DNA from: Omnitrophica WOR_2 bacterium GWF2_43_52
Lineage (GTDB): Bacteria > Omnitrophota > Gorgyraeia > Gygaellales > UBA12090
Assembly: GCA_001805445.1 (NCBI GenBank)
Contig: MHGF01000036.1
Coordinates: 7,526-71,525, forward strand
DNA: 64,000 nucleotides
Direction: 5' to 3'
Of the stretch, positions 5,139 through 28,004 are shown piece after piece. Within the stretch, counting starts at the first letter, position 1, and each line of letters opens with the position of its first letter. Both the position numbers and the translations under genes were made by a program. The notes beneath the pieces are model-generated. The model was not told the DNA's origin and made no database searches. It saw only the letters and a list, made by a program, of their open reading frames with translations.

Positions 5139-6701
5139 TTGGCTAAGGTGAATGTCAAGAGAGATTTAAAAAAGATTATTAGCTTGGGAAAGCAAAAGGG
5201 TTTTCTGACGTACGACGAACTCAATGACCTGCTTCCCGAAGATATTTCTTCTACCGAAGAGATTGACCAAATTTTTGAGCTTTTAGGCAGTGAGGACATC
5301 CGCATTATTAATCCTCTTGACCAGAAGGGGAAAGAGGCTGAAGAGCCGGAAGAGCAGGTAAAGGAGCTCTTGGATGAAAAGCTTATTCTTGAGAGCAGGT
5401 TTGTTCCACTCGACGATCCGGTAAAAATGTACCTCAAGCAGATGGGCTCTATCGCTCTTTTAACCCGGGAAGAGGAAATCACCCTGGCAAAAAAAATAGA
5501 AGCGACGGAAGTAGAGCTGTGCGAGGCGGTGTATTCCACGGCATATGCCAGGGCTGAAGTTTTAAAGGTTGTAAATAGTTTATTCCATAAGGAGGCTAAT
5601 CTAGAAGATATCCTTAAGGAGGAAATTAAAGTAAAAAAAGAGTCAATCATGCGGCGTTTTTCGCGCCTGGCGCATCGGCTAAGGCATTCACGGATGCAAT
5701 CGAATAATGTAAAGCTGCTTATGTCATTCGGTTTTACCACCTCTATTGTTGAGGACACCGCGAAGAACTTTATGGCTATGCTAAAAGAGCTTGATGAGGC
5801 AACCCGCAGGCTTGAGCAGTCTCCAAAGAAATCACCTAAGATACCGGACTATAGGGCCAAGAGAAGGGAGCTGTTAAAGCTCTTAGGCAGCCAGTCGCCA
5901 GAGACACTCAAGGAAAGTAGTAAAATAATAAGGATGCGGCTTTTCAGGTTCAATAAGGCAAAGAAAAAACTAGTTGAGGCAAATCTGAGGCTAGTAGTAA
6001 GTATTGCCAAGAAATATACCAATCGGGGGATGTCCTTTCTGGATTTGATTCAGGAGGGTAACATCGGGCTTATGCGCGCGGTTGAGAAGTTTGAATATAA
6101 GCGCGGGTATAAATTTTCAACCTATGCCACCTGGTGGATCCGCCAGGCGATTACCCGCTCCATAGCTGACCAGGCACGCACTATCCGCATCCCTGTGCAT
6201 ATGACAGAGGTAATCAACAAAATTTTACGGGTGAGCAGGATTTTTGTCCAGGAATATGGGCGCGACCCACAGTCTGAAGAGATAGCCAAAGAGATGAGAA
6301 TATCCCAGGATAAAGTAAAAGCGATCTTAAAGATTGCGCAGGAGCCGATTTCTTTGCAAACACCGATTGGCGATGAAGGTGATACCCATTTCGGAGACTT
6401 TATTGAAGATAAAAAGGCTATTTCTCCCGCTAATGCCACGGTGTATTCAATGCTCAAAGATAATATGAGCGAGGCTTTAGCGACGCTGACCGAAAGGGAA
6501 AGGAGAATATTGCTCTTACGTTTTGGCCTTCAGGATGGAACTGCCCGTACCCTGGAAGAGGTGGGTAAGGTTTTTAGGGTAACCCGCGAGAGGGTACGCC
6601 AGATTGAAGCCAAGGCGTTAAAGAAACTGAGGCACCCTACACGCAGCAGGAAACTGCGCACATTTCTTGATATGGCTATTGCAAGCGAGAGAGAGTATTA
6701 A
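5139..6701 (+). CDS. rpoD: RNA polymerase sigma-70 factor RpoD
   Basis: Region 2 ([63 protein letters not shown]) and regions 3-4 ([18 protein letters not shown]). Confidence 0.95.
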
Positions 6702-7276: not shown

Positions 7277-7307
7277 CAATATAGCAATATAGTACTATGT
7301 TAAAAGC

Positions 7308-7460
7308 GGATATCAGGGAATCAGGATATTAGGCTTTGGGAATCAGGAGATCAGGAAAGTGGGATTTGTTTTTGTCCCTAATATCCTGATGCCCTGATTG
7401 CCAAATCCTGATACCCAGATTACCTCATTCCCGTATTACACATATTGTAGTTACTGCTGA
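7308..7460. repeat. Copy A of a ~150-nt palindromic element built from ATCAGG/ATTAGG hexamers on the left arm and CCTGAT/CCTAAT on the right arm
   Basis: GGATATCAGGGAATCAGGATATTAGG...CCTAATATCCTGATGCCCTGATTGCCAAATCCTGATACCCAG. Shares architecture and sequence with copies at 16537-16705 and 18641-18775. Confidence 0.8.
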
Positions 7461-7614: not shown

Positions 7615-8391
7615 ATGGCAGAGGAATTCCTAAAACCGGTGTATCTGGAAGCGTTTGATCTTGATGACGCATGGTTTCAGTGCCTTAGTGCGATTATCGA
7701 AAATGGCCACATTTACTCTATTGACCGCGGCAGTTATCAGGGGCAGCGCCGCCTGGAGTTTGATTTTGTTACGGTGAGGGTAAAAAAACCGTCGCATCAG
7801 ATTATTCCTGTTATTCCCGAGGGGATGTCTATTCCCTCGCCCACGGATATGGAGTATGTGCAAGGGTATTTAAGTTACCTGCTTACCGGAACTAAGACGA
7901 ATACGGAAGATTATACCTATGGAGAGCGTTTGGTTGACGCGAAAGCCCGTGTGCGTAACGGCGATTTAGTCAAAGAAATGCCGCTTGAAGTAAACCAGAT
8001 AGAAGAAGTTATCAGGATGTATAAAACCCAGGGTTTTGGCACGAACCAGGCAACGATGGAAATCGGTATGCCTTCGGATATAAAGCTTGAAGACCCGCCT
8101 TGCCTAAGAATTATTGATACGCGCATCCGTTACGGGAAACTGCATTTTATACTTTACTTTCGTTCCTGGGATTTGTGGGGAGGGTTTCCTTCTAATTTGG
8201 GAGGGCTGCAGTTAGTTAAGCAGTATATGGCTTCAGAGATAGGTGTGGAAGACGGTGAGATTATTGCCTGCAGCAAGGGGCTGCATTTGTATGAGTATTC
8301 CTGGGAATTAGCCCAGATGCGTACGAAGAAAGTTATTAAAACAAACCCTACAAAGAGTAATCCCTTCGTAACTTCTTCCCGGTCGTGTTGA
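7615..8391 (+). CDS. Divergent thymidylate synthase (ThyA) superfamily protein, alternative or archaeal-like
   Basis: Aligns by eye to ThyA blocks: DRGSYQGQRRLEFDF (like DRTGTGTLSIFG), PPCLRIIDTRIRYGKLHFILYFRSWDLWGGFPSNLGGLQLV (like [38 protein letters not shown]). Preferred start ATG 7615 has SD AAGGGGGG; the longer ORF uses GTG 7585. Confidence 0.55.
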   Translation: MAEEFLKPVYLEAFDLDDAWFQCLSAIIENGHIYSIDRGSYQGQRRLEFDFVTVRVKKPSHQIIPVIPEGMSIPSPTDMEYVQGYLSYLLTGTKTNTEDYTYGERLVDAKARVRNGDLVKEMPLEVNQIEEVIRMYKTQGFGTNQATMEIGMPSDIKLEDPPCLRIIDTRIRYGKLHFILYFRSWDLWGGFPSNLGGLQLVKQYMASEIGVEDGEIIACSKGLHLYEYSWELAQMRTKKVIKTNPTKSNPFVTSSRSC

Positions 8392-9602: not shown

Positions 9603-9887
9603 GTGCAGTATGTCTATGTGTTACAAAGTTTGAAAGATGGTAATTTTTACACTGGGTATACAGGCGATTTAAAACGCCGAATAGAAGAACATAACAGCGG
9701 TTTGCAAGTTTCAACTAAAGCCAGAATGCCTTTTAAGCTTGTTTATTATGAATGGTGTATATCAAAAGAGGACGCGATTAATAGAGAGAAATATTTAAAA
9801 AGTGGCAGAGGTAAGGCGTATCTAAAAGAAAGAATCAGGCATTATTTACAGGAGTTTGACGGAGTGCTCCTCGAACAAAACCTGTAA
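9603..9887 (+). CDS. GIY-YIG nuclease-domain protein (YhbQ/UPF0213-like)
   Basis: VYVLQS..DGNFYTGYTGDLKRRIEEHNSG is the GIY-YIG signature; 94 aa. Confidence 0.75.
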   Translation: MQYVYVLQSLKDGNFYTGYTGDLKRRIEEHNSGLQVSTKARMPFKLVYYEWCISKEDAINREKYLKSGRGKAYLKERIRHYLQEFDGVLLEQNL

Positions 9888-10110
9888 TTAGAATAGCGTA
9901 GGTACAGGAAAGATGATGAGGGGGCGTGCCCCGTACAAAACCTGTAATTTACAGAGCAAAGTTTTGTTCGGGGCGTGCCCCGAACAAATTTTCTGTATAG
10001 GATGTTGATATAAATTAAATTTTATAAAATAGATACCTGGGTATAGTAATTGACTATGGGGGGGCGTGCCCCGTACAAAATTGCTATACTTAGATATAAC
10101 AATTTTGTAC
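9868..10110. repeat. Array of GGGGCGTGCCCCG palindromes, each followed by (T/A)ACAAAA(CCTGTAATT), between the GIY-YIG gene and tRNA-Pro
   Basis: Units at about 9921, 9969 and 10059. The 9-mer CGGGGCGTG is identical to the tRNA-Pro 5' end at 10110. TTTGTTCGGGGCGTGCCCCGAACAAA is itself a long palindrome. Spacing is irregular. Confidence 0.75.
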
Positions 10111-10184
10111 GGGGCGTGGCTCAGTTTGGCTAGAGCGCTTGAATGGGGTTCAAGAGGTCGACGGTTCAAGTCCGTCCGCCCCGA
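10110..10184 (+). tRNA. tRNA-Pro (anticodon GGG)
   Basis: Acceptor CGGGGCG/CGCCCCG, D-stem GCTC/GAGC, anticodon stem CTTGA/TCAAG with loop ATGGGGT (anticodon GGG), T-arm ACGG-TTCAAGT-CCGT, discriminator A. Confidence 0.75.
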
Positions 10185-10249
10185 CTACACTCTTTTAACG
10201 TTTACCCTATTACACCGTTAAATTAATTATTATTGGTTAACGGTGTAAT

Positions 10250-10375
10250 AAAGGGGGTGTGGGGGAGACCGTCACCCACGATTGGGGAGTGCTCAGCGAT
10301 CCGCCGTAGGCGGAGAGCGCCGAAGGGGGGCTTGCTCCCCTAGCGGAAGTGCGGAGGCAAATTCCGCTTACCCAT
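10250..10375. repeat. Copy 1 of a ~100-nt GC-rich conserved element (AAGGGGTGTGGGGGAGACCGTC.CCCACG.TTGGGG.GTGCTCAGCGATCCGCCGTAGGCGGAGAGCGCCGAAGGGGGGCTTGC.CCCCTAGCGGAAGTGCG)
   Basis: Near-identical second copy at 15402-15530. Contains nested hairpins (CCGCC-GTAG-GCGG; GGGGGG-CTTGC-CCCC). GC-rich island in AT-rich DNA, upstream of the GroES-like gene. Preceded by the inverted repeat TTACACCGTTAA...TTAACGGTGTAA. Confidence 0.75.
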
Positions 10376-10398
10376 AAGAATTAATTTGACGGAGCGCT

Positions 10399-10767
10399 AT
10401 GGCAGATAAAATTGATAAAAAATTGATCGTCGTAGGTGATCGGGTGCTGATTATCCCTGATGACGGCCAGAATCGCACCGATACAGGGTTATATCTACCG
10501 CAAGGAGTAAAAGAGAAGGAAAAGGTACAGAGTGGGACTATTGTCAAGATTGGCCCTGGGTATCCTGTGGTTGACCCTTCGGCGCTCGAGGTAGAGCCAT
10601 GGCAGGCGCCAAAGGTAGAGAATAGGTATTTCCCGCTTTTGGCAAAGGAAGGCGATTATTGTATTTTCTTAAGAAACGCCGGAGTAGAGATAGAATATGA
10701 GGGGAAAAAATATATCGTGGCTCCCCATTCCGCAATCCTTGTGCTTTTAAGAAATACGTTAGAATAG
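10399..10767 (+). CDS. GroES/Cpn10-like small protein
   Basis: 122 aa; N-terminal KKLIVVGDRVLIIPDD and overall beta-rich pattern resemble co-chaperonin GroES; longer than canonical. Confidence 0.45.
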   Translation: MADKIDKKLIVVGDRVLIIPDDGQNRTDTGLYLPQGVKEKEKVQSGTIVKIGPGYPVVDPSALEVEPWQAPKVENRYFPLLAKEGDYCIFLRNAGVEIEYEGKKYIVAPHSAILVLLRNTLE

Positions 10768-15090: not shown

Positions 15091-15573
15091 TTACTAGTGC
15101 GCTGTGACATTAGATTTTGACATTGCGCTATCATGTTTGAATATAGGGCGGAGGTCCTGTCAAGGTTATGTTTTCGCGGGGACGTTCGGCCTGCTCCTGC
15201 GGCAGACCTCACTCGGCGTAAATTTTCGCGCCCGCCACTAAAAGCGAGAGCGGGTCCAAGCCGCGAAAATTTCCGTACGCCCCGCTCAAACACAACCTTG
15301 CCACCCCCGCTGGCAAGTGAAGTGTTGCAGATAGCATGAATTTATGTCACGGAGCACTAGTACACTGTGAAATTAATTTTCAATAATTGACAGTGTAGTA
15401 AAAGGGGTGTGGGGGAGACCGTCCCCCACGCTTGGGGGGGTGCTCAGCGATCCGCCGTAGGCGGAGAGCGCCGAAGGGGGCTTGCCCCCCTAGCGCCTGC
15501 CTGCCTGCCGGCAGGGAAGTGCGCCCTCAAACCACCGTATATTATCAATAATTAAGTTCACAGCGCACTAGTT
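15091..15573. repeat. About 480-bp noncoding segment bounded by 13-bp inverted repeats (CTAGTGCGCTGTG / CACAGCGCACTAG, with a degenerate internal copy at 15346-15361) holding a GC-rich block and copy 2 of the GC-rich element
   Basis: Read directly. Internal inverted repeat GGCGTAAATTTTCGCGC / GCGAAAATTTCCGTACGCC. Strong GC skew relative to flanks. The 68-aa ORF at 15133-15339 is low-complexity (P/R/A-rich) and judged noncoding. Confidence 0.6.
15402..15530. repeat. Copy 2 of the GC-rich conserved element, carrying a nested insertion of the 22-bp CCTGCCTGCCGGCAGG palindrome between CTAGCG and GGAAGTGCG
   Basis: Copy 1 reads CTAGCGGAAGTGCG. Copy 2 reads CTAGCG-CCTGCCTGCCTGCCGGCAG-GGAAGTGCG. 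Confidence 0.75.
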
Positions 15574-16473
15574 ATGCTCAAGCACACAGCGATATGGTTG
15601 TTAGGTGTTATAGGTACTATAGCTTTATCGCCACAGGCCGTTGGCGATACTATCCCCCAGCCGGCAGGGTGGGTAAATGATTTTTCCAATTGCATCAGCG
15701 ATGAGTATAGGCAGAAGATTACTGAATTGATCACTGAAGTAGAGCTTAAGACTTCATCTGAAATAGCTGTAGTCACAGTCGCTTCAATGGCTCCTTATGA
15801 TGAGGCAGGCTACGCGCGATTGCTCTTTGATAGGTGGAAACCGGGTAAGAAAGGCAAAGATAACGGGGTTTTGGTATTATTGGCGATAAAGGAAAGGGCT
15901 TGGCGTATTGAAACCGGTTATGGTATGGAAGAGCTTTTGCCTGATGGGGTATGTGGTGAGATAGGCAGAGACTATATGGTGCCTTCTTTTAAGGAGGGTT
16001 TATACGGCAAGGGGCTTTATTACGGAGTCCTCGCGATAGCAGGGGCCATTGTGAAAAATTCAGGCGGCACTTTGGAGCATGCAGAAAGGCTCCCTCCTAA
16101 GAAAAGCGTTGATGCGCCGTTATTTCTATATTTTTTTGCCTTTATATTTTTTGCCATCTGGAATTTACCCTGGCCGATTTTTATAGGGTTGCCATTTACC
16201 GCATTCTTTGCCCTGTGTTTCTATCAAGTGTCCCCATGGGTGAGCTTATTGATTATTGCAGGATATTGCGTTTCTCTGATTATTAGATACAGGTATTGGT
16301 CAGAGCAATCACCTAAAAGGCGAAGAAGTTTTTTCGGGCCGCAGGATTATGGTGGAAGAGTGACAAGCGGAGGATGGGGAGGTGGATACAGCGGTGGTTT
16401 TGGCGGAGGGGGGAGTTTCGGTGGCTTTGGCGGCGGTGGCGGCGGTGGCGGCGGAGCCGGGGGCAGGTTCTAA
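15574..16473 (+). CDS. TPM-domain (YgcG/TLP18.3-like) membrane-anchored protein with Gly-rich C-terminal tail
   Basis: Signal/TM start, TPM core (KITELITEVELKTSSEIAVVTV...GVLVLLAIKERAWRIETGYG), TM helices, GGWGGGYSGGFGGGG tail. Classic partner of LemA. Confidence 0.75.
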   Translation: MLKHTAIWLLGVIGTIALSPQAVGDTIPQPAGWVNDFSNCISDEYRQKITELITEVELKTSSEIAVVTVASMAPYDEAGYARLLFDRWKPGKKGKDNGVLVLLAIKERAWRIETGYGMEELLPDGVCGEIGRDYMVPSFKEGLYGKGLYYGVLAIAGAIVKNSGGTLEHAERLPPKKSVDAPLFLYFFAFIFFAIWNLPWPIFIGLPFTAFFALCFYQVSPWVSLLIIAGYCVSLIIRYRYWSEQSPKRRRSFFGPQDYGGRVTSGGWGGGYSGGFGGGGSFGGFGGGGGGGGGAGGRF

Positions 16474-16536
16474 ATAGAGCTCAAAGCGTTCTCTAGTACA
16501 CCGTTATATTAATTATTGCCTGCCTGCCACGGGCAG

Positions 16537-16705
16537 GGATATCAGGGTATCAGGGAATTGGGATTTGGGGATCGGGCAATCGAAGGATTAGGGAAAAACC
16601 GATATTTTGTTCCCAATATCCTGATATCCTAATCACCAAATCCTAATCTCCCGATCACCTAATCTCCGCATTTAACATGGTTAATTACATATATTATACG
16701 AGGAG
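16537..16705. repeat. Copy B of the ATCAGG-hexamer palindromic element plus conserved tail CCGCATTTAACATGGTTAATTACATATATTATACG (promoter-like) upstream of lemA
   Basis: GGATATCAGGGTATCAGGGAATTGGGATTTGGGG...CCCAATATCCTGATATCCTAATCACCAAATCCTAATCTCCCGATCACCTAATCTCC. Immediately preceded by the GCCTGCCTGCCACGGGCAGGG palindrome (16518-16538). Confidence 0.8.
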
Positions 16706-18640: not shown

Positions 18641-18775
18641 GGATATCAGGGTATCGGGAAATTAGGAAAAAAACTATTCTTTATTCCTACTATCCCGATA
18701 TCCTGATTACCAAATCCTAATCTTCCCGGCCACCTGATTTCCGTATTTAACATGGTTATTTACCTATAGTATGTG
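18641..18775. repeat. Copy C of the ATCAGG-hexamer palindromic element with conserved tail CCGTATTTAACATGGTTATTTACCTATAGTATG upstream of lysC
   Basis: GGATATCAGGGTATCGGGAAATTAGG...CCTACTATCCCGATATCCTGATTACCAAATCCTAATCTTCCCGGCCACCTGATTTCC. Confidence 0.8.
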
Positions 18776-18798
18776 AAGAGAAAGGCAAAAGTAGAGAA

Positions 18799-24788: not shown

Positions 24789-24940
24789 CAGCAGAGCTGA
24801 ACATGTTATAGAGGAAGATGATAATTGTTGCGTGTATCGTTAACCTTGCCTACCGGCAGGCAGGCGTGTACCGCTTGCCGTAACGGTAAACGGTTAGCGG
24901 TAAACGGTACACGAAACATAATTTTTAACATAGGAGAGAT

Positions 24941-25157: not shown

Positions 25158-28004
25158 ATGGAAGAATTAAACAGCCGTTACAATTCAAAAGAGGTGGAAG
25201 ACAGGATGTATGCCTTTTGGCAAAGTGAAAACCTGTTTGCCGCCAAAGTTAATCCTGATAAGAAGCCTTTTTGTATCGTTATCCCGCCGCCTAATGTAAC
25301 AGGAATATTACATATGGGCCACGCGCTCAATAACACCTATCAAGACATTTTAATCCGTCTTAGGCGTATGCAAGGCTTTGAGTCTTTGTGGATGCCCGGG
25401 ACCGATCACGCCGGTATTGCCACCCAGAATGTGGTAGAACGCCAACTTGCCAAGGAGGGCTTGAAGCGCCAGGATTTAGGCAGGGACAAGTTTTTGGAGA
25501 GAGTCTGGCAGTGGAAGGAGCAATACGGCTCAACGATTATACGGCAGTTAAAGAAATTGGGCGCGTCAAGTGACTGGCAGCGGGTGCGTTTTACTATGGA
25601 TGAGGAATACTCTCAGTCGGTAAAAGAGGTATTTGTTGCCTTGTGGAATAAAGGCCTGATTTATCAGGATGATAAGATCATCAACTGGTGCCCTCGCTGC
25701 CAAACGGCCTTATCGGATGAGGAAGCTGCTCATCGCGAAGTTCAGGGGAATTTGTATTATATACGGTATTCTCTTAAAGAAGAAATTCGAAATTCGAAAT
25801 TCGAAATTCGAGATAAATCTCAAATCGAAAATCACACATCGCAAAATTATATCGTGGTAGCAACCACACGGCCGGAGACGATGGTAGGGGATACGGCGGT
25901 TGCTCTGAATCCAAAAGATGAGCGCTATAAGCACTTAATTGGTAAAACGGTTATTGTGCCTCTAATAGAACGGGAAATTAAAATAATTGCCGATGAATTG
26001 ATTGATATGGAATTTGGAACCGGTTTGGTGAAGGTTACCCCGGCCCATGACTCCAATGATTATGAGATGGGCAAGCGCCATACACTAGAGTTTATCAACA
26101 TTATGCATCCTAACGCGGTTTTAAATACGAATGCCGGTGACTATAACGGCTTGGATAGGTTTGAGGCGCGAGAGGCAATTATTGAAGATTTAAAAGAAAG
26201 AAAACTCATTGAAAAGATTGAGCCGCATACCCATGCCGTGGGGCATTGTTATCGCTGCTCAACCGTGATAGAACCGTATTTGTCAAGGCAGTGGTTTGTG
26301 AAAATGGAGCCGTTGGCAAAACCGGCGATTGAAGCGGTAAAAGACGGGAGAATCAATTTTTATCCTAAACGCTGGGCCAAGGTTTATCTTAACTGGATGG
26401 AGAATATCAGGGATTGGTGTATCTCTCGCCAAATCTGGTGGGGGCATAGACTGCCGGTTTATTATTGCAAAGAATGCTTGAAAACCGGCAGTCAGTGTAA
26501 AGTTGAAAGTGTAAAGTGTAAAGAAAAAGGAATTATTGTGGCTAAAGTTAAGCCCCAGAAGTGTCCGGATTGCGGTGGAGGGGATATCTATCAGGATGAA
26601 GATGTTTTGGATACCTGGTTTTCTTCCTGGCTGTGGCCGTTTGCTACTTTTTATTGGCCGTTTAATACGAAGGATGAAGCCTGCCTGCCGGCAAGGCAGG
26701 GACGAAGGATGAAGGACGAAAAAGATTTAAACTATTTTTATCCTACGTCTGTCTTAGTGACCGCTCCTGAAATTATTTTTTTCTGGGTGGCGCGTATGAT
26801 TATGGCTGGTTTTGAATTCATGGGAAAAGAACCGTTTAAGGATGTCTATATCCACGGCACCGTGCGGGATGTAGAAGGTAAAAAGATGTCTAAGTCCTTA
26901 GGCAATATCATTGACCCTTTGGAAATTATTGAGAAATACGGCACTGATGCGCTTCGCTTCAGCCTTATTTCTATAACCGCAAGCGGGCAGGATGTCTTTT
27001 TATCCGAGCAGAAGTTCGAGGTGGGCAGGAATTTTGCCAATAAACTCTGGAATGCCTCGCGGTTTTCACTTATGAATTTGGATTTGAGTTTAGTAAATGT
27101 GGATTTATGCGTTTTATTTGAGAAGGAAGACCTTGAACTCCCTGAGCGATGGATCTTGAGCCGGTTTTATTCAATGCTTAGTGCCTTAAATAAGGCGTTA
27201 GATAACTACCGTTTTAATGACGCGGCTAATATCCTCTATGAATTTGTATGGCATGAGTTTTGTGATTGGTATATAGAGCTGGCAAAGCCTAATTTGGTGA
27301 GCGGGTTAGCGGGTGAGCGGGTGAGCGGGGAAAGCAAGAATACACAGATAGTATTGTATAAGGTTTTAGAAAAAACCTTAAGGTGTTTGCATCCGTTTAT
27401 GCCCTTTATTACCGAAGAAATCTGGCAGAAACTTTCTTTAACGTCCCTCGTCCCTCGTCCCCCGTCCTTCGTAAGTATTATGACCCAACCGTGGCCGCAT
27501 GTGCAAAAAAAGATAATCGATAAGAAGGCCGAAAGCCAAATGCAGCTGGCTATTGAGGTTATTACCGCGATCAGAAATTTAAAAGCTGAGGTAAAGATTG
27601 CTCCGGCGCAGGCGGTTAAAGTAATGCTCATAGCTAAGGATAAAGAAGTAAAAAGCGCCTTGGATACAGTAGCGAGCTATATCACGAATTTGGGAAGGGT
27701 AGAGGCTTTAACAATTCAAGGAGCGCCCGCAAAGCTGAAAAAAGGTATAAGTGCTATAGTACATGAGGTGCAGGTATTTTTAGAGCTTGAAGGATTGCTT
27801 GATATTGATCAGGAAATAGAACGGCTTACTAAGGAAGCCGATGCGCTTGCGGGATCTTTAAAGTCAAAGGAATCCCGGCTAAAAAATAAGGATTTCCTCA
27901 AAAAAGCACCCGAAGAAATTGTGGAAAAAGAGAAAGAGTCGCTGGCACAAGGCCAGGAAAAATTGGCAAGCCTGCAGAGGGTTATTAGTGAGCTTAAGAA
28001 ATAA
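25158..28004 (+). CDS. valS: Valine--tRNA ligase
   Basis: HIGH (PPNVTGILHMGHALN), KMSKS, editing domain, C-terminal coiled-coil; 948 aa. Carries five short repeat-derived in-frame insertions (25783-25810, 26494-26523, 26667-26714, 27298-27331, 27443-27472). Confidence 0.95.
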   Translation: MEELNSRYNSKEVEDRMYAFWQSENLFAAKVNPDKKPFCIVIPPPNVTGILHMGHALNNTYQDILIRLRRMQGFESLWMPGTDHAGIATQNVVERQLAKEGLKRQDLGRDKFLERVWQWKEQYGSTIIRQLKKLGASSDWQRVRFTMDEEYSQSVKEVFVALWNKGLIYQDDKIINWCPRCQTALSDEEAAHREVQGNLYYIRYSLKEEIRNSKFEIRDKSQIENHTSQNYIVVATTRPETMVGDTAVALNPKDERYKHLIGKTVIVPLIEREIKIIADELIDMEFGTGLVKVTPAHDSNDYEMGKRHTLEFINIMHPNAVLNTNAGDYNGLDRFEAREAIIEDLKERKLIEKIEPHTHAVGHCYRCSTVIEPYLSRQWFVKMEPLAKPAIEAVKDGRINFYPKRWAKVYLNWMENIRDWCISRQIWWGHRLPVYYCKECLKTGSQCKVESVKCKEKGIIVAKVKPQKCPDCGGGDIYQDEDVLDTWFSSWLWPFATFYWPFNTKDEACLPARQGRRMKDEKDLNYFYPTSVLVTAPEIIFFWVARMIMAGFEFMGKEPFKDVYIHGTVRDVEGKKMSKSLGNIIDPLEIIEKYGTDALRFSLISITASGQDVFLSEQKFEVGRNFANKLWNASRFSLMNLDLSLVNVDLCVLFEKEDLELPERWILSRFYSMLSALNKALDNYRFNDAANILYEFVWHEFCDWYIELAKPNLVSGLAGERVSGESKNTQIVLYKVLEKTLRCLHPFMPFITEEIWQKLSLTSLVPRPPSFVSIMTQPWPHVQKKIIDKKAESQMQLAIEVITAIRNLKAEVKIAPAQAVKVMLIAKDKEVKSALDTVASYITNLGRVEALTIQGAPAKLKKGISAIVHEVQVFLELEGLLDIDQEIERLTKEADALAGSLKSKESRLKNKDFLKKAPEEIVEKEKESLAQGQEKLASLQRVISELKK
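25783..25810 (+). repeat. Intragenic tandem repeat (GAAATTC)x4 within valS
   Basis: Read directly. Lies in a surface-loop region that is about 13 aa longer than E. coli ValRS. Confidence 0.8.
26667..26714 (+). repeat. 22-bp palindrome CCTGCCTGCCGGCAAGGCAGGG flanked by perfect 13-bp direct repeats ACGAAGGATGAAG, inserted in-frame inside valS
   Basis: Read directly. The same palindrome family occurs at 15496-15516, 16518-16538 and (reverse orientation) 24844-24866. Confidence 0.8.

Follow-up and report, generated by a model that had tools for sequence, protein, structure and literature searches.

A dispersed, probably mobile repeat unit of Omnitrophota carrying a divergent relative of the Clostridiales-2 RNA

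Introduction

Bacterial miniature inverted-repeat transposable elements (MITEs) are non-coding units of less than 300 bp. They possess terminal inverted repeats, short TA-containing direct repeats and hairpin ends, are situated in intergenic or intra-operon sites, and an effect on the 5' region of a neighbouring gene is plausible for them. Neisseria Correia elements, ERIC/IRU and RUP are co-transcribed examples. Such elements are genus-specific, and their interiors are not RNAs conserved across phyla. Insertion sequences of the IS5 and IS630 types target CTAG or YTAR and form a duplication of 2-4 bp, as described in ISfinder. The Clostridiales-2 RNA (Rfam RF02937), one orphan motif among many, was described by Weinberg et al. 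2017 (PMC5737381); the main text does not discuss it. Rfam types the family as 'sRNA' (small RNA). In the present study, two copies of a GC-rich structured element were analyzed in a 64-kb stretch (hereafter, the window) of Omnitrophica WOR_2 bacterium GWF2_43_52, contig MHGF01000036.1. The population concerned is groundwater Omnitrophota (GCA_003499645.1 and metagenome-assembled genomes, MAGs, from Rifle). The core of the element was found to align with RF02937 and to be carried by a sharply bounded repeat unit. A literature search on the motif name, or on such repeats in Omnitrophota and Clostridia, returned nothing relevant, and no description of a mobile-element architecture for an RF02937 variant was found in the searched literature.

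Results

Two copies of a conserved core in the window

Both core copies noted originally were confirmed. They are on the + strand of the window, with 66-72% G+C against about 44% in the window. They share an identical block of 41 nt (10289-10329 and 15440-15480) and a second one of 18 nt, and neither block was reproduced in any of 100 shuffles. The predicted locations were correct but the predicted lengths were too short. Pairwise alignment showed that the similarity overruns the reported ends to about 10207-10400 and 15357-15571, with an AT-rich inverted repeat on the left side and the motif AATTAAnTTnACnGnGCnCTA on the right. Over the aligned regions with flanks, the copies are 81% identical. 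Copy 1 is identical across ten conspecific contigs.

Relation of the core to Clostridiales-2 RNA

In an E-value scan, both copies matched RF02937 over all 82 model positions. The scores were 42.3 bits for copy 2 (15395-15481) and 32.0 bits for copy 1 (10245-10330), with E-values of 1e-7 and 1e-4 in a 5.8-kb scan. Assignment to a known Rfam family, which had been put forward as a refuting outcome, is thus answered in two parts: the match is full-length, but both copies fall below the gathering score of 58.6 bits. At gathering thresholds two tRNAs were the sole matches in the window, and up to E 10 no family besides RF02937 matched the element. The core begins with GGGGGUG, P1, GGRGGGUGCUCAG and P2; next come P3a and P3, flanking the internal loop CG-AA / UAG-CG, and then GAAGUG. 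Clostridiales-2 RNA has the same block order (GGGGUG, P1, GGAGGGUGCUCAG, P2, CGNCGAAGGG). The blocks GGGggUG, GGAGGGUGCUCAG and CGUCGAAGGG are matched in the model alignments and are invariant or nearly so in an alignment of 59 sequences. Likenesses at the level of short words with 5S rRNA, with the glycine riboswitch and with the CIRCE operator of HrcA were discarded, as none of them gave an Rfam match up to E 10 and the word order differs.

To analyze the distribution of the core, a gapped pattern of the conserved blocks was run over 185,579 species with one genome each. It returned 84 loci, seven of which were chance matches in GC-rich genomes, leaving about 80 copies; the expectation of additional copies in relatives was therefore borne out. 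Many genomes hold several copies: seven in Clostridiaceae FI22, six each in Eubacteriaceae MGYG-HGUT-00063 and Clostridium sediminicola, four in Emergencia timonensis, at least nine in NC10 SPGG6, two or three in Planctomycetales MAGs, one to three in Omnitrophota MAGs and one in Thermosipho. When 20 loci were scanned at the gathering threshold, ten from Clostridia and Thermosipho scored 60.8-85.2 bits and ten from Omnitrophota, NC10 and Planctomycetes gave no RF02937 match. A covariance model, R1, was built from 59 sequences drawn from both groups. It recovered 82 copies at 36-101 bits across 85 sources and scored none of the seven chance loci, so that a single model unites both groups and rejects the chance matches. 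Within the window, R1 found the core only twice (copy 1, 80 bits; copy 2, 65.9 bits). No copy was found in plasmid and phage collections. There, blastn with the Clostridial unit gave matches to its AT-rich flank or none, and a loose gapped pattern gave seven matches on viral contigs, all by chance in coding or GC-rich DNA.

On the basis of these alignments, the core is best classed as a distant homologue of the Clostridiales-2 RNA and not as a new RNA family. The likeness extends to the full-length model alignment, the joint covariance model and the presence of multiple copies per genome. The window form differs in its score (32-42 bits), in its host, since it belongs to Omnitrophota (and is found also in NC10 and Planctomycetes) and not to Clostridia, and in P3, which is GGGGGGC/GCCCCCC in place of GGGAACC/GGUUCCC. 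Its 3' end is a long hairpin to GCACUAG without a U-run, where Clostridiales-2 has an intrinsic terminator. Its flanks are CTAG-bounded inverted repeats, where Clostridiales-2 has a T-run and an AT-rich palindrome after a host terminator.

Secondary structure and covariation

Compared with shuffled sequences, both strands of the window copies fold more favourably (z from about -3.2 to -3.5), and single-sequence folding is therefore uninformative on strand. Helices were obtained from RNAalifold and an explicit pair count, which supported four of them, P1, P2, P3 and P3a. P2 varies in length and sequence among the copies. P3 is GGGAACC/GGUUCCC in Clostridia and GGGGGGC/GCCCCCC in other phyla, a switch from A-U to G-C in 23-24 sequences. 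The internal loop YCG-AA-[P3]-UAG-CGR, which is conserved, is closed by P3a, a helix of 3 bp; 36 sequences have C-G as the first pair of P3a and 21 have U-A. Both P3a and P3 lie 3' of the 82-position Rfam model, where its alignment ends. Paired cells amounted to 87%, compared with 45-59% when the partners were slid by 1-3 columns. Cells with double-sided changes numbered 227 against 34-66 in the slid controls, and the covariation score was 0.384 against 0.09-0.15. None of 500 shuffles attained the observed percentage paired, double-sided count or covariation score. Double-sided changes occur in three of seven pairs in P1 and six of seven in P2. The core thus has RNA-type covariation, and its earlier description as a candidate structured RNA is upheld by these compensatory changes. 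The 13-nt junction GGRGGGUGCUCAG and the blocks CGAAGGG and UAGCG are invariant or nearly so. A pseudoknot of the 5' GGGGG with the GUGCUCAG block may form and is regarded as a candidate only.

Three further ideas about the core were rejected. A small open reading frame (ORF) with its AUG in P2 and its UAG in CUAG fails, as the AUG is present in few copies only. P2 as a target guide is contradicted by the same P2 at different sites within one genome. A three-state switch of P3a, a local hairpin GCGGAAGU/ACUUCCGC and the hairpin at the right end of the unit was set aside, because the local hairpin is found in a subset of Omnitrophota only. Insertions into the helices were also seen: an extra hairpin inside P1 (GGGAGUUUUCGCCCCC) in two NC10 loci (L023, L083) and two metagenome loci (L137, L215), and 40-50 nt inside P3 in four Clostridial loci (L060, L100, L024, L050).

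Architecture of the repeat unit

The ends of the unit were placed by means of the family alignment and, in relatives, of alignments between copies of one genome across their boundaries. The repeat is about 190-215 bp long and non-coding, with the core in the central ~100 nt. In Omnitrophota, NC10 and Planctomycetes, copies that share a genome hardly differ between (C)TAGTGC and GCACTAG and are unrelated beyond these limits. Sharp identity boundaries of this kind were observed in a Planctomycetales MAG (three copies), in NC10 SPGG6 (seven aligned) and in Omnitrophota nzgw295 (three). As inverted repeats the termini are imperfect: complementarity extends to 14 of 15 positions in L026 and L088 and to as many as 18 of 19 in L078, and window copy 1 has 13 of 14. 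Each terminus pairs with a neighbouring internal segment into a hairpin, named LE at the left end and RE at the right end. From lineage to lineage these hairpins change in sequence with pairing preserved, and LE has 9-15 bp in the other units examined.

The unit is bounded by CTAG-like direct repeats of 4 bp. In four units a tetramer other than CTAG recurs unchanged at the opposite end (CTAT/CTAT in window copy 1, CTAC/CTAC in L020 and L090, GTAG/GTAG in L065), and in about six others the two tetramers differ. The matched tetramers are identical and not complementary, as a 4-bp target duplication predicts. In NC10, neighbouring tandem units share one CTAG. This anatomy of bounding repeats, terminal inverted repeats and sharp boundaries agrees with the original suggestion of a mobile element. 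It also resembles that of bacterial MITEs in size, coding status, termini, target-like direct repeats, sites, hairpin ends and a plausible effect on the 5' region of the next gene, with the difference that here the interior is the most conserved part, the ends are lineage-specific and no cognate transposase was identified. The CTAG-like tetramers at both ends, their matching variants and the shared CTAG of tandem units resemble IS5 and IS630 insertions as well; no transposase gene with these termini was found in the fetched loci, and this link is drawn from the target motif only.

A related unit, termed element B, is located directly left of copy 2 (15094-15360, + strand). It has the same CTAG-flanked termini as the window copies, with one CTAG common to element B and copy 2, around an unrelated GC-rich core of ~200 nt with a very stable predicted fold (-113 kcal/mol). 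It has no Rfam match, and only its ends, not its core, match the fetched loci. As the same ends here enclose a different cargo, element B was counted in favour of mobile-unit anatomy. A metagenome scan for the LE palindrome of Omnitrophota gave 113 loci, which were mostly unrelated long palindromes and in which no transposase was found; the core adjoins six of 114 such palindromes, and a few more core-like beginnings were recognized by eye. In one conspecific contig (L004, JGI 3300009296), positions 7780-7830 agree with window positions 15300-15362 at 60 of 62 nt, and the agreement stops where element B ends on the right (..GGAGCACTA). Past this end, L004 enters an RNase Y / YmdB / exonuclease VII locus which is absent from the window. 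The junction coincides with the repeat end and is either a rearrangement breakpoint or an assembly join.

The Clostridial form is organized in a different way. In 38 of 50 Clostridial copies, the intrinsic-terminator hairpin of the host ends exactly at a T-run. This T-run begins an AT-rich palindrome (..ATAGGAAA..TTTCCTAT..) which is lineage-specific and was found only next to the core. The unit ends with its own GC hairpin and T-run, followed by a variable repeat of its 5' end, which ranges between 1-5 nt and an entire second palindrome (L036, L061, L095).

Gene context and orientation

In 43 of 57 cases the element runs in the direction of both flanking genes, and in five it runs against both. 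About 20% of the copies have no co-oriented gene downstream. Downstream functions include LpxI, L19, formate-tetrahydrofolate ligase (FTHFS), M48 peptidase, iPGM, PhoH, hydantoinase, YHS and AtpD. Of ten downstream proteins analyzed with Pfam, nine had unrelated functions and one had no match. In the window, the downstream genes encode a GroES-like protein and a TPM-domain protein, for which the element had been suggested as a cis-regulatory leader. This suggestion is not supported. In other Omnitrophota, the spacers upstream of five GroES-like orthologues (75-83% identity) measure 0-92 nt and lack the element. Because the downstream genes are functionally unrelated, the element is not a gene-specific leader.

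Neither a sigma-70-like promoter nor a + strand terminator was found at either window copy; at copy 2 the sole site in the scan was a minus-strand terminator-like hairpin inside element B. An intrinsic terminator at the 3' end of the unit is seen only in the Clostridial form. Taken together, the orientation, the spacer sites, the unrelated genes and the lack of a recognisable promoter argue for insertion and co-transcription.

Many Omnitrophota right repeats read ACGGAGCAC where the left equivalent is ACAGTGCAC, and with a right repeat of the ACGGAGCAC type GGAG stands 4-9 nt ahead of the start codon of the next gene. In an Omnitrophota MAG (L098) the unit at 6428-6640 lies between a putative atpG, a 287-aa ORF so labelled without a Pfam check, and atpD. 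The ATG of atpD is 2 nt past the right CTAT, and the GGAG of the element is 7 nt upstream. To the left of this unit an AAGGA has been left behind which looks like the earlier ribosome-binding site. In Emergencia timonensis (L027, 5673-6018) the unit is situated between a lysine riboswitch (5673-5836) and the aspartokinase ORF expected to be under its control, directly after an apparent riboswitch terminator hairpin and T-run.

Features of the two copies

All features of the two copies are on the + strand. The whole unit of copy 1 is 10207-10400, with a CTAT at its left end (10207-10210) and another at its right end (10397-10400). On its left is tRNA-Pro (10110-10185) and on its right the GroES-like ORF, the ATG of which (10399) overlaps the right CTAT. 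The LE hairpin (10208-10250) has the arms TATTACACCGTTAA and TTAACGGTGTAATA, complementary at 14 of 14 positions, and its left arm is the left terminal inverted repeat. The RNA core (10253-10351) starts with the GGGGGUG block, followed by P1 (10259-10279), the single-stranded GAUUGGGGAGUGCUCAG (10280-10296), P2 (10296-10318), P3a (10320-10322 with 10344-10346), P3 (10325-10340) and CUAGCGGAAGUG (10340-10351). The local hairpin GCGGAA..UUCCGC begins at 10343 and overlaps the core. The RE region (10347-10396) contains the right terminal repeat AATTAATTTGACGGAGCG (10379-10396), and GGAG (10391-10394) is 4 nt before the ATG.

Copy 2 occupies 15357-15571, from the CTAG common with element B (15357-15360) to the CTAG at 15568-15571, and the ATG of the TPM-domain ORF follows at 15574, just past the unit. 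Its LE hairpin (15358-15400; TAGTACACTGT .. ACAGTGTAGTA) preserves the helix of copy 1 through C>T / G>A changes. The core (15404-15523) comprises P1 (15409-15429), P2 (15447-15469), P3 (15476-15490), CUAGCG (15490-15495), the nested palindrome CCTGCCTGCCTGCCGGCAGG (15496-15515) and GAAGUGCG (15516-15523). In the RE hairpin (15518-15569), AGUGCGC (15518-15524) pairs with GCGCACU (15563-15569), and this 3' arm is the right terminal repeat.

Nested palindrome and other spacer repeats

The nested segment of copy 2 was predicted to be inserted between CTAGCG and GAAGTG. The junction is right, but the segment is 20 nt long and not 22 bp. It splits the 3' strand of P3a; as the CG and G flanking it are kept, P3a could still form around it. 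Three further hairpins of the type CCTGCCTGCC..GGCAGG are found at intergenic sites in the window, at 16517-16541, 24845-24866 and 26679-26701. A pattern search gave four matches against 0.05 expected, and the copy at 16517 was read directly in the sequence. The palindrome is also present in L020 (3911-3933) and in the element of L059, where it occupies the same CTAGCG^GAAGTG junction. These sites support the proposal that the palindrome is independent of the element, and CCTGCC..GGCAGG-type palindromes are an independent short repeat family of Omnitrophota spacers, similar to repetitive extragenic palindromes (REP). The insertion point shared by copy 2 and L059 could equally reflect two insertions or one subfamily. 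Solitary copies of the palindrome have the form CCTGCCTGCC..GGCAGG(CAGG).

Other repeats were observed in the spacers of the window. A family of long imperfect hairpin repeats (GGGATATCAGGGTATCAGGG...) is present in three of them (16536-16680, 18645-18780 and 7294-7443), and in two of these spacers the hairpin repeat follows a motif (16493, 7290) similar to the left terminal repeat of the main element. Upstream of tRNA-Pro, three hairpins (9921-9940, 9970-9989 and 10061-10080) read GGGGCGTGCCCC and then GTACAAAA or GAACAAA. They echo the first ~12 nt of tRNA-Pro together with the upstream TTTTGTAC, and may be partial duplications of the tRNA 5' end or a target-like repeat. A 94-aa protein with a GIY-YIG domain is encoded at 9603-9887, directly upstream of the region of tRNA-Pro and copy 1.

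Discussion

Each copy is probably a mobile, non-coding repeat unit of ~200 bp. The interpretation which we favour, with moderate confidence, is a dispersed MITE-like unit carrying a divergent Clostridiales-2 RNA, kept for a role at the RNA level and moved in trans. According to this proposal the unit would be co-transcribed with its neighbouring genes, and the core would fold within the operon transcript or be cut from it. A CTAG-targeting DDE transposase, as in IS5/IS630-type enzymes, would move the unit in trans. The GGAG-bearing end may serve as a ribosome-binding site, which would let insertions beside start codons survive. For the role of the conserved core we would guess first at a small RNA that is processed and stable, or at a module which insulates or stabilises the mRNA. 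The deep conservation of the core, with ends that turn over, suggests that the RNA itself is under selection.

Some observations weigh against this interpretation. No strictly isogenic empty site was recovered. The fetched loci contain neither a transposase with matching ends nor a large inverted pair of the termini, and so no autonomous element with the same termini was seen among them. Clustering of the neighbouring proteins of 80 copies revealed no recurrent family. Conservation of the core over five phyla is unlike a passive MITE interior. In the helices, G-U pairs exceed A-C mismatches by 52 to 32, which is only a mild signal for the + strand. The Clostridial form has no inverted termini and is placed after a host terminator, and its dispersal must use a different route from that of the CTAG-type units. 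For this route, one may speculate about priming on the U-run or about an intermediate that is circular or tandem.

Among the alternatives, a family of trans-acting small RNA genes survives best, although we consider it improbable. Each copy would then be an independent gene, GGRGGGUGCUCAG a seed or protein-binding site, and the dispersal secondary. The Clostridial unit does look like a stand-alone gene, following the terminator of the upstream gene and ending in its own hairpin and U-run; the copy number is moderate (two to nine or more per genome), the 13-nt junction is invariant across phyla and the downstream genes are unrelated. However, no promoter is recognisable, and by our reading the spacing from the palindrome halves to a -10-like box varies from 14 to 23 nt. 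The Omnitrophota copies lack a terminator, fill intra-operon spacers and abut start codons. Such a small RNA could also be the cargo of the MITE-like unit, so that the two interpretations are compatible.

A portable cis-regulatory RNA, either riboswitch-like, thermometer-like or a protein-binding attenuator, with the core as sensor and the 3' hairpin as expression platform, is doubtful. The split between terminator and Shine-Dalgarno (SD) hairpin platforms is classic in riboswitch classes, and here the same core is followed by a terminator and U-run in Firmicutes or by a hairpin with GGAG 4-9 nt before the start codon in Omnitrophota. In the Omnitrophota subset that has it, the local hairpin GCGGAAGU/ACUUCCGC rivals P3a and the RE hairpin. 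Against this stand the absence of a common function among the downstream genes, the fifth or so of copies without a co-oriented following gene, the GroES-like orthologues without the element, and the absence of the competing hairpin from NC10, Planctomycetes and several Omnitrophota units. The wider idea of the core as a portable sensor (a riboswitch-like aptamer) or a self-processing RNA spread by small mobile elements is likewise a long shot. If true, a portable device would wire unrelated genes and operons to one signal or processing step, with its platform swapped by lineage, being an intrinsic terminator in Clostridia but in Omnitrophota a hairpin that bears the SD sequence, and a mobile riboswitch or ribozyme cassette would be common to five phyla.

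The two remaining explanations are disfavoured by the Rfam scan, the neighbour clustering, the orientation bias and the boundary alignments. In one of them, the element is a DNA-level palindrome cluster similar to REP or bacterial interspersed mosaic elements (BIME), without an RNA role and with structures which are only DNA hairpins. The end hairpins are indeed similar to REP doublets, the spacers of the genome hold further short palindromes as well as long hairpin repeats, and both strands fold about equally well in silico. REP families are lineage-specific, however, and here a 100-nt core with unpaired blocks spans five phyla as the end palindromes change. The sense-orientation bias is strong and the Clostridial copies finish in a + strand intrinsic terminator, which makes this explanation very unlikely. 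A transposon guide-RNA remnant, derived from IS200/IS605 with a TnpB/IscB omega-RNA or from an IS110 bridge RNA, has in its favour the hairpins at both ends with the common foot AGUGC..GCACU, the patchy phyletic distribution and an orientation bias that would suit single-strand transposition, but it is hardly credible given that no recurrent nuclease or recombinase ORF stands beside the 80 copies, no Rfam omega-RNA matches to E 10, P2 is unchanged at different insertion sites in one genome and hence not a site-specific guide, and 4-bp direct repeats with inverted termini are unlike IS200/IS605.

The analysis extends the Clostridiales-2 motif to Omnitrophota, NC10 and Planctomycetes, and to a Thermosipho copy which passes the threshold. 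Beyond the Rfam model, it adds the conserved helices P3a and P3 together with an internal loop that is invariant. The RNA travels in sharply bounded units, which follow terminators in Clostridia and, in the other phyla, occupy CTAG-like intergenic sites. Cultured hosts for functional work are available in Emergencia timonensis, Clostridium intestinale DSM 6191 and C. sediminicola. The motif, so far an 'sRNA of Clostridiales', can be reframed as a widely dispersed RNA which is probably borne by mobile elements.

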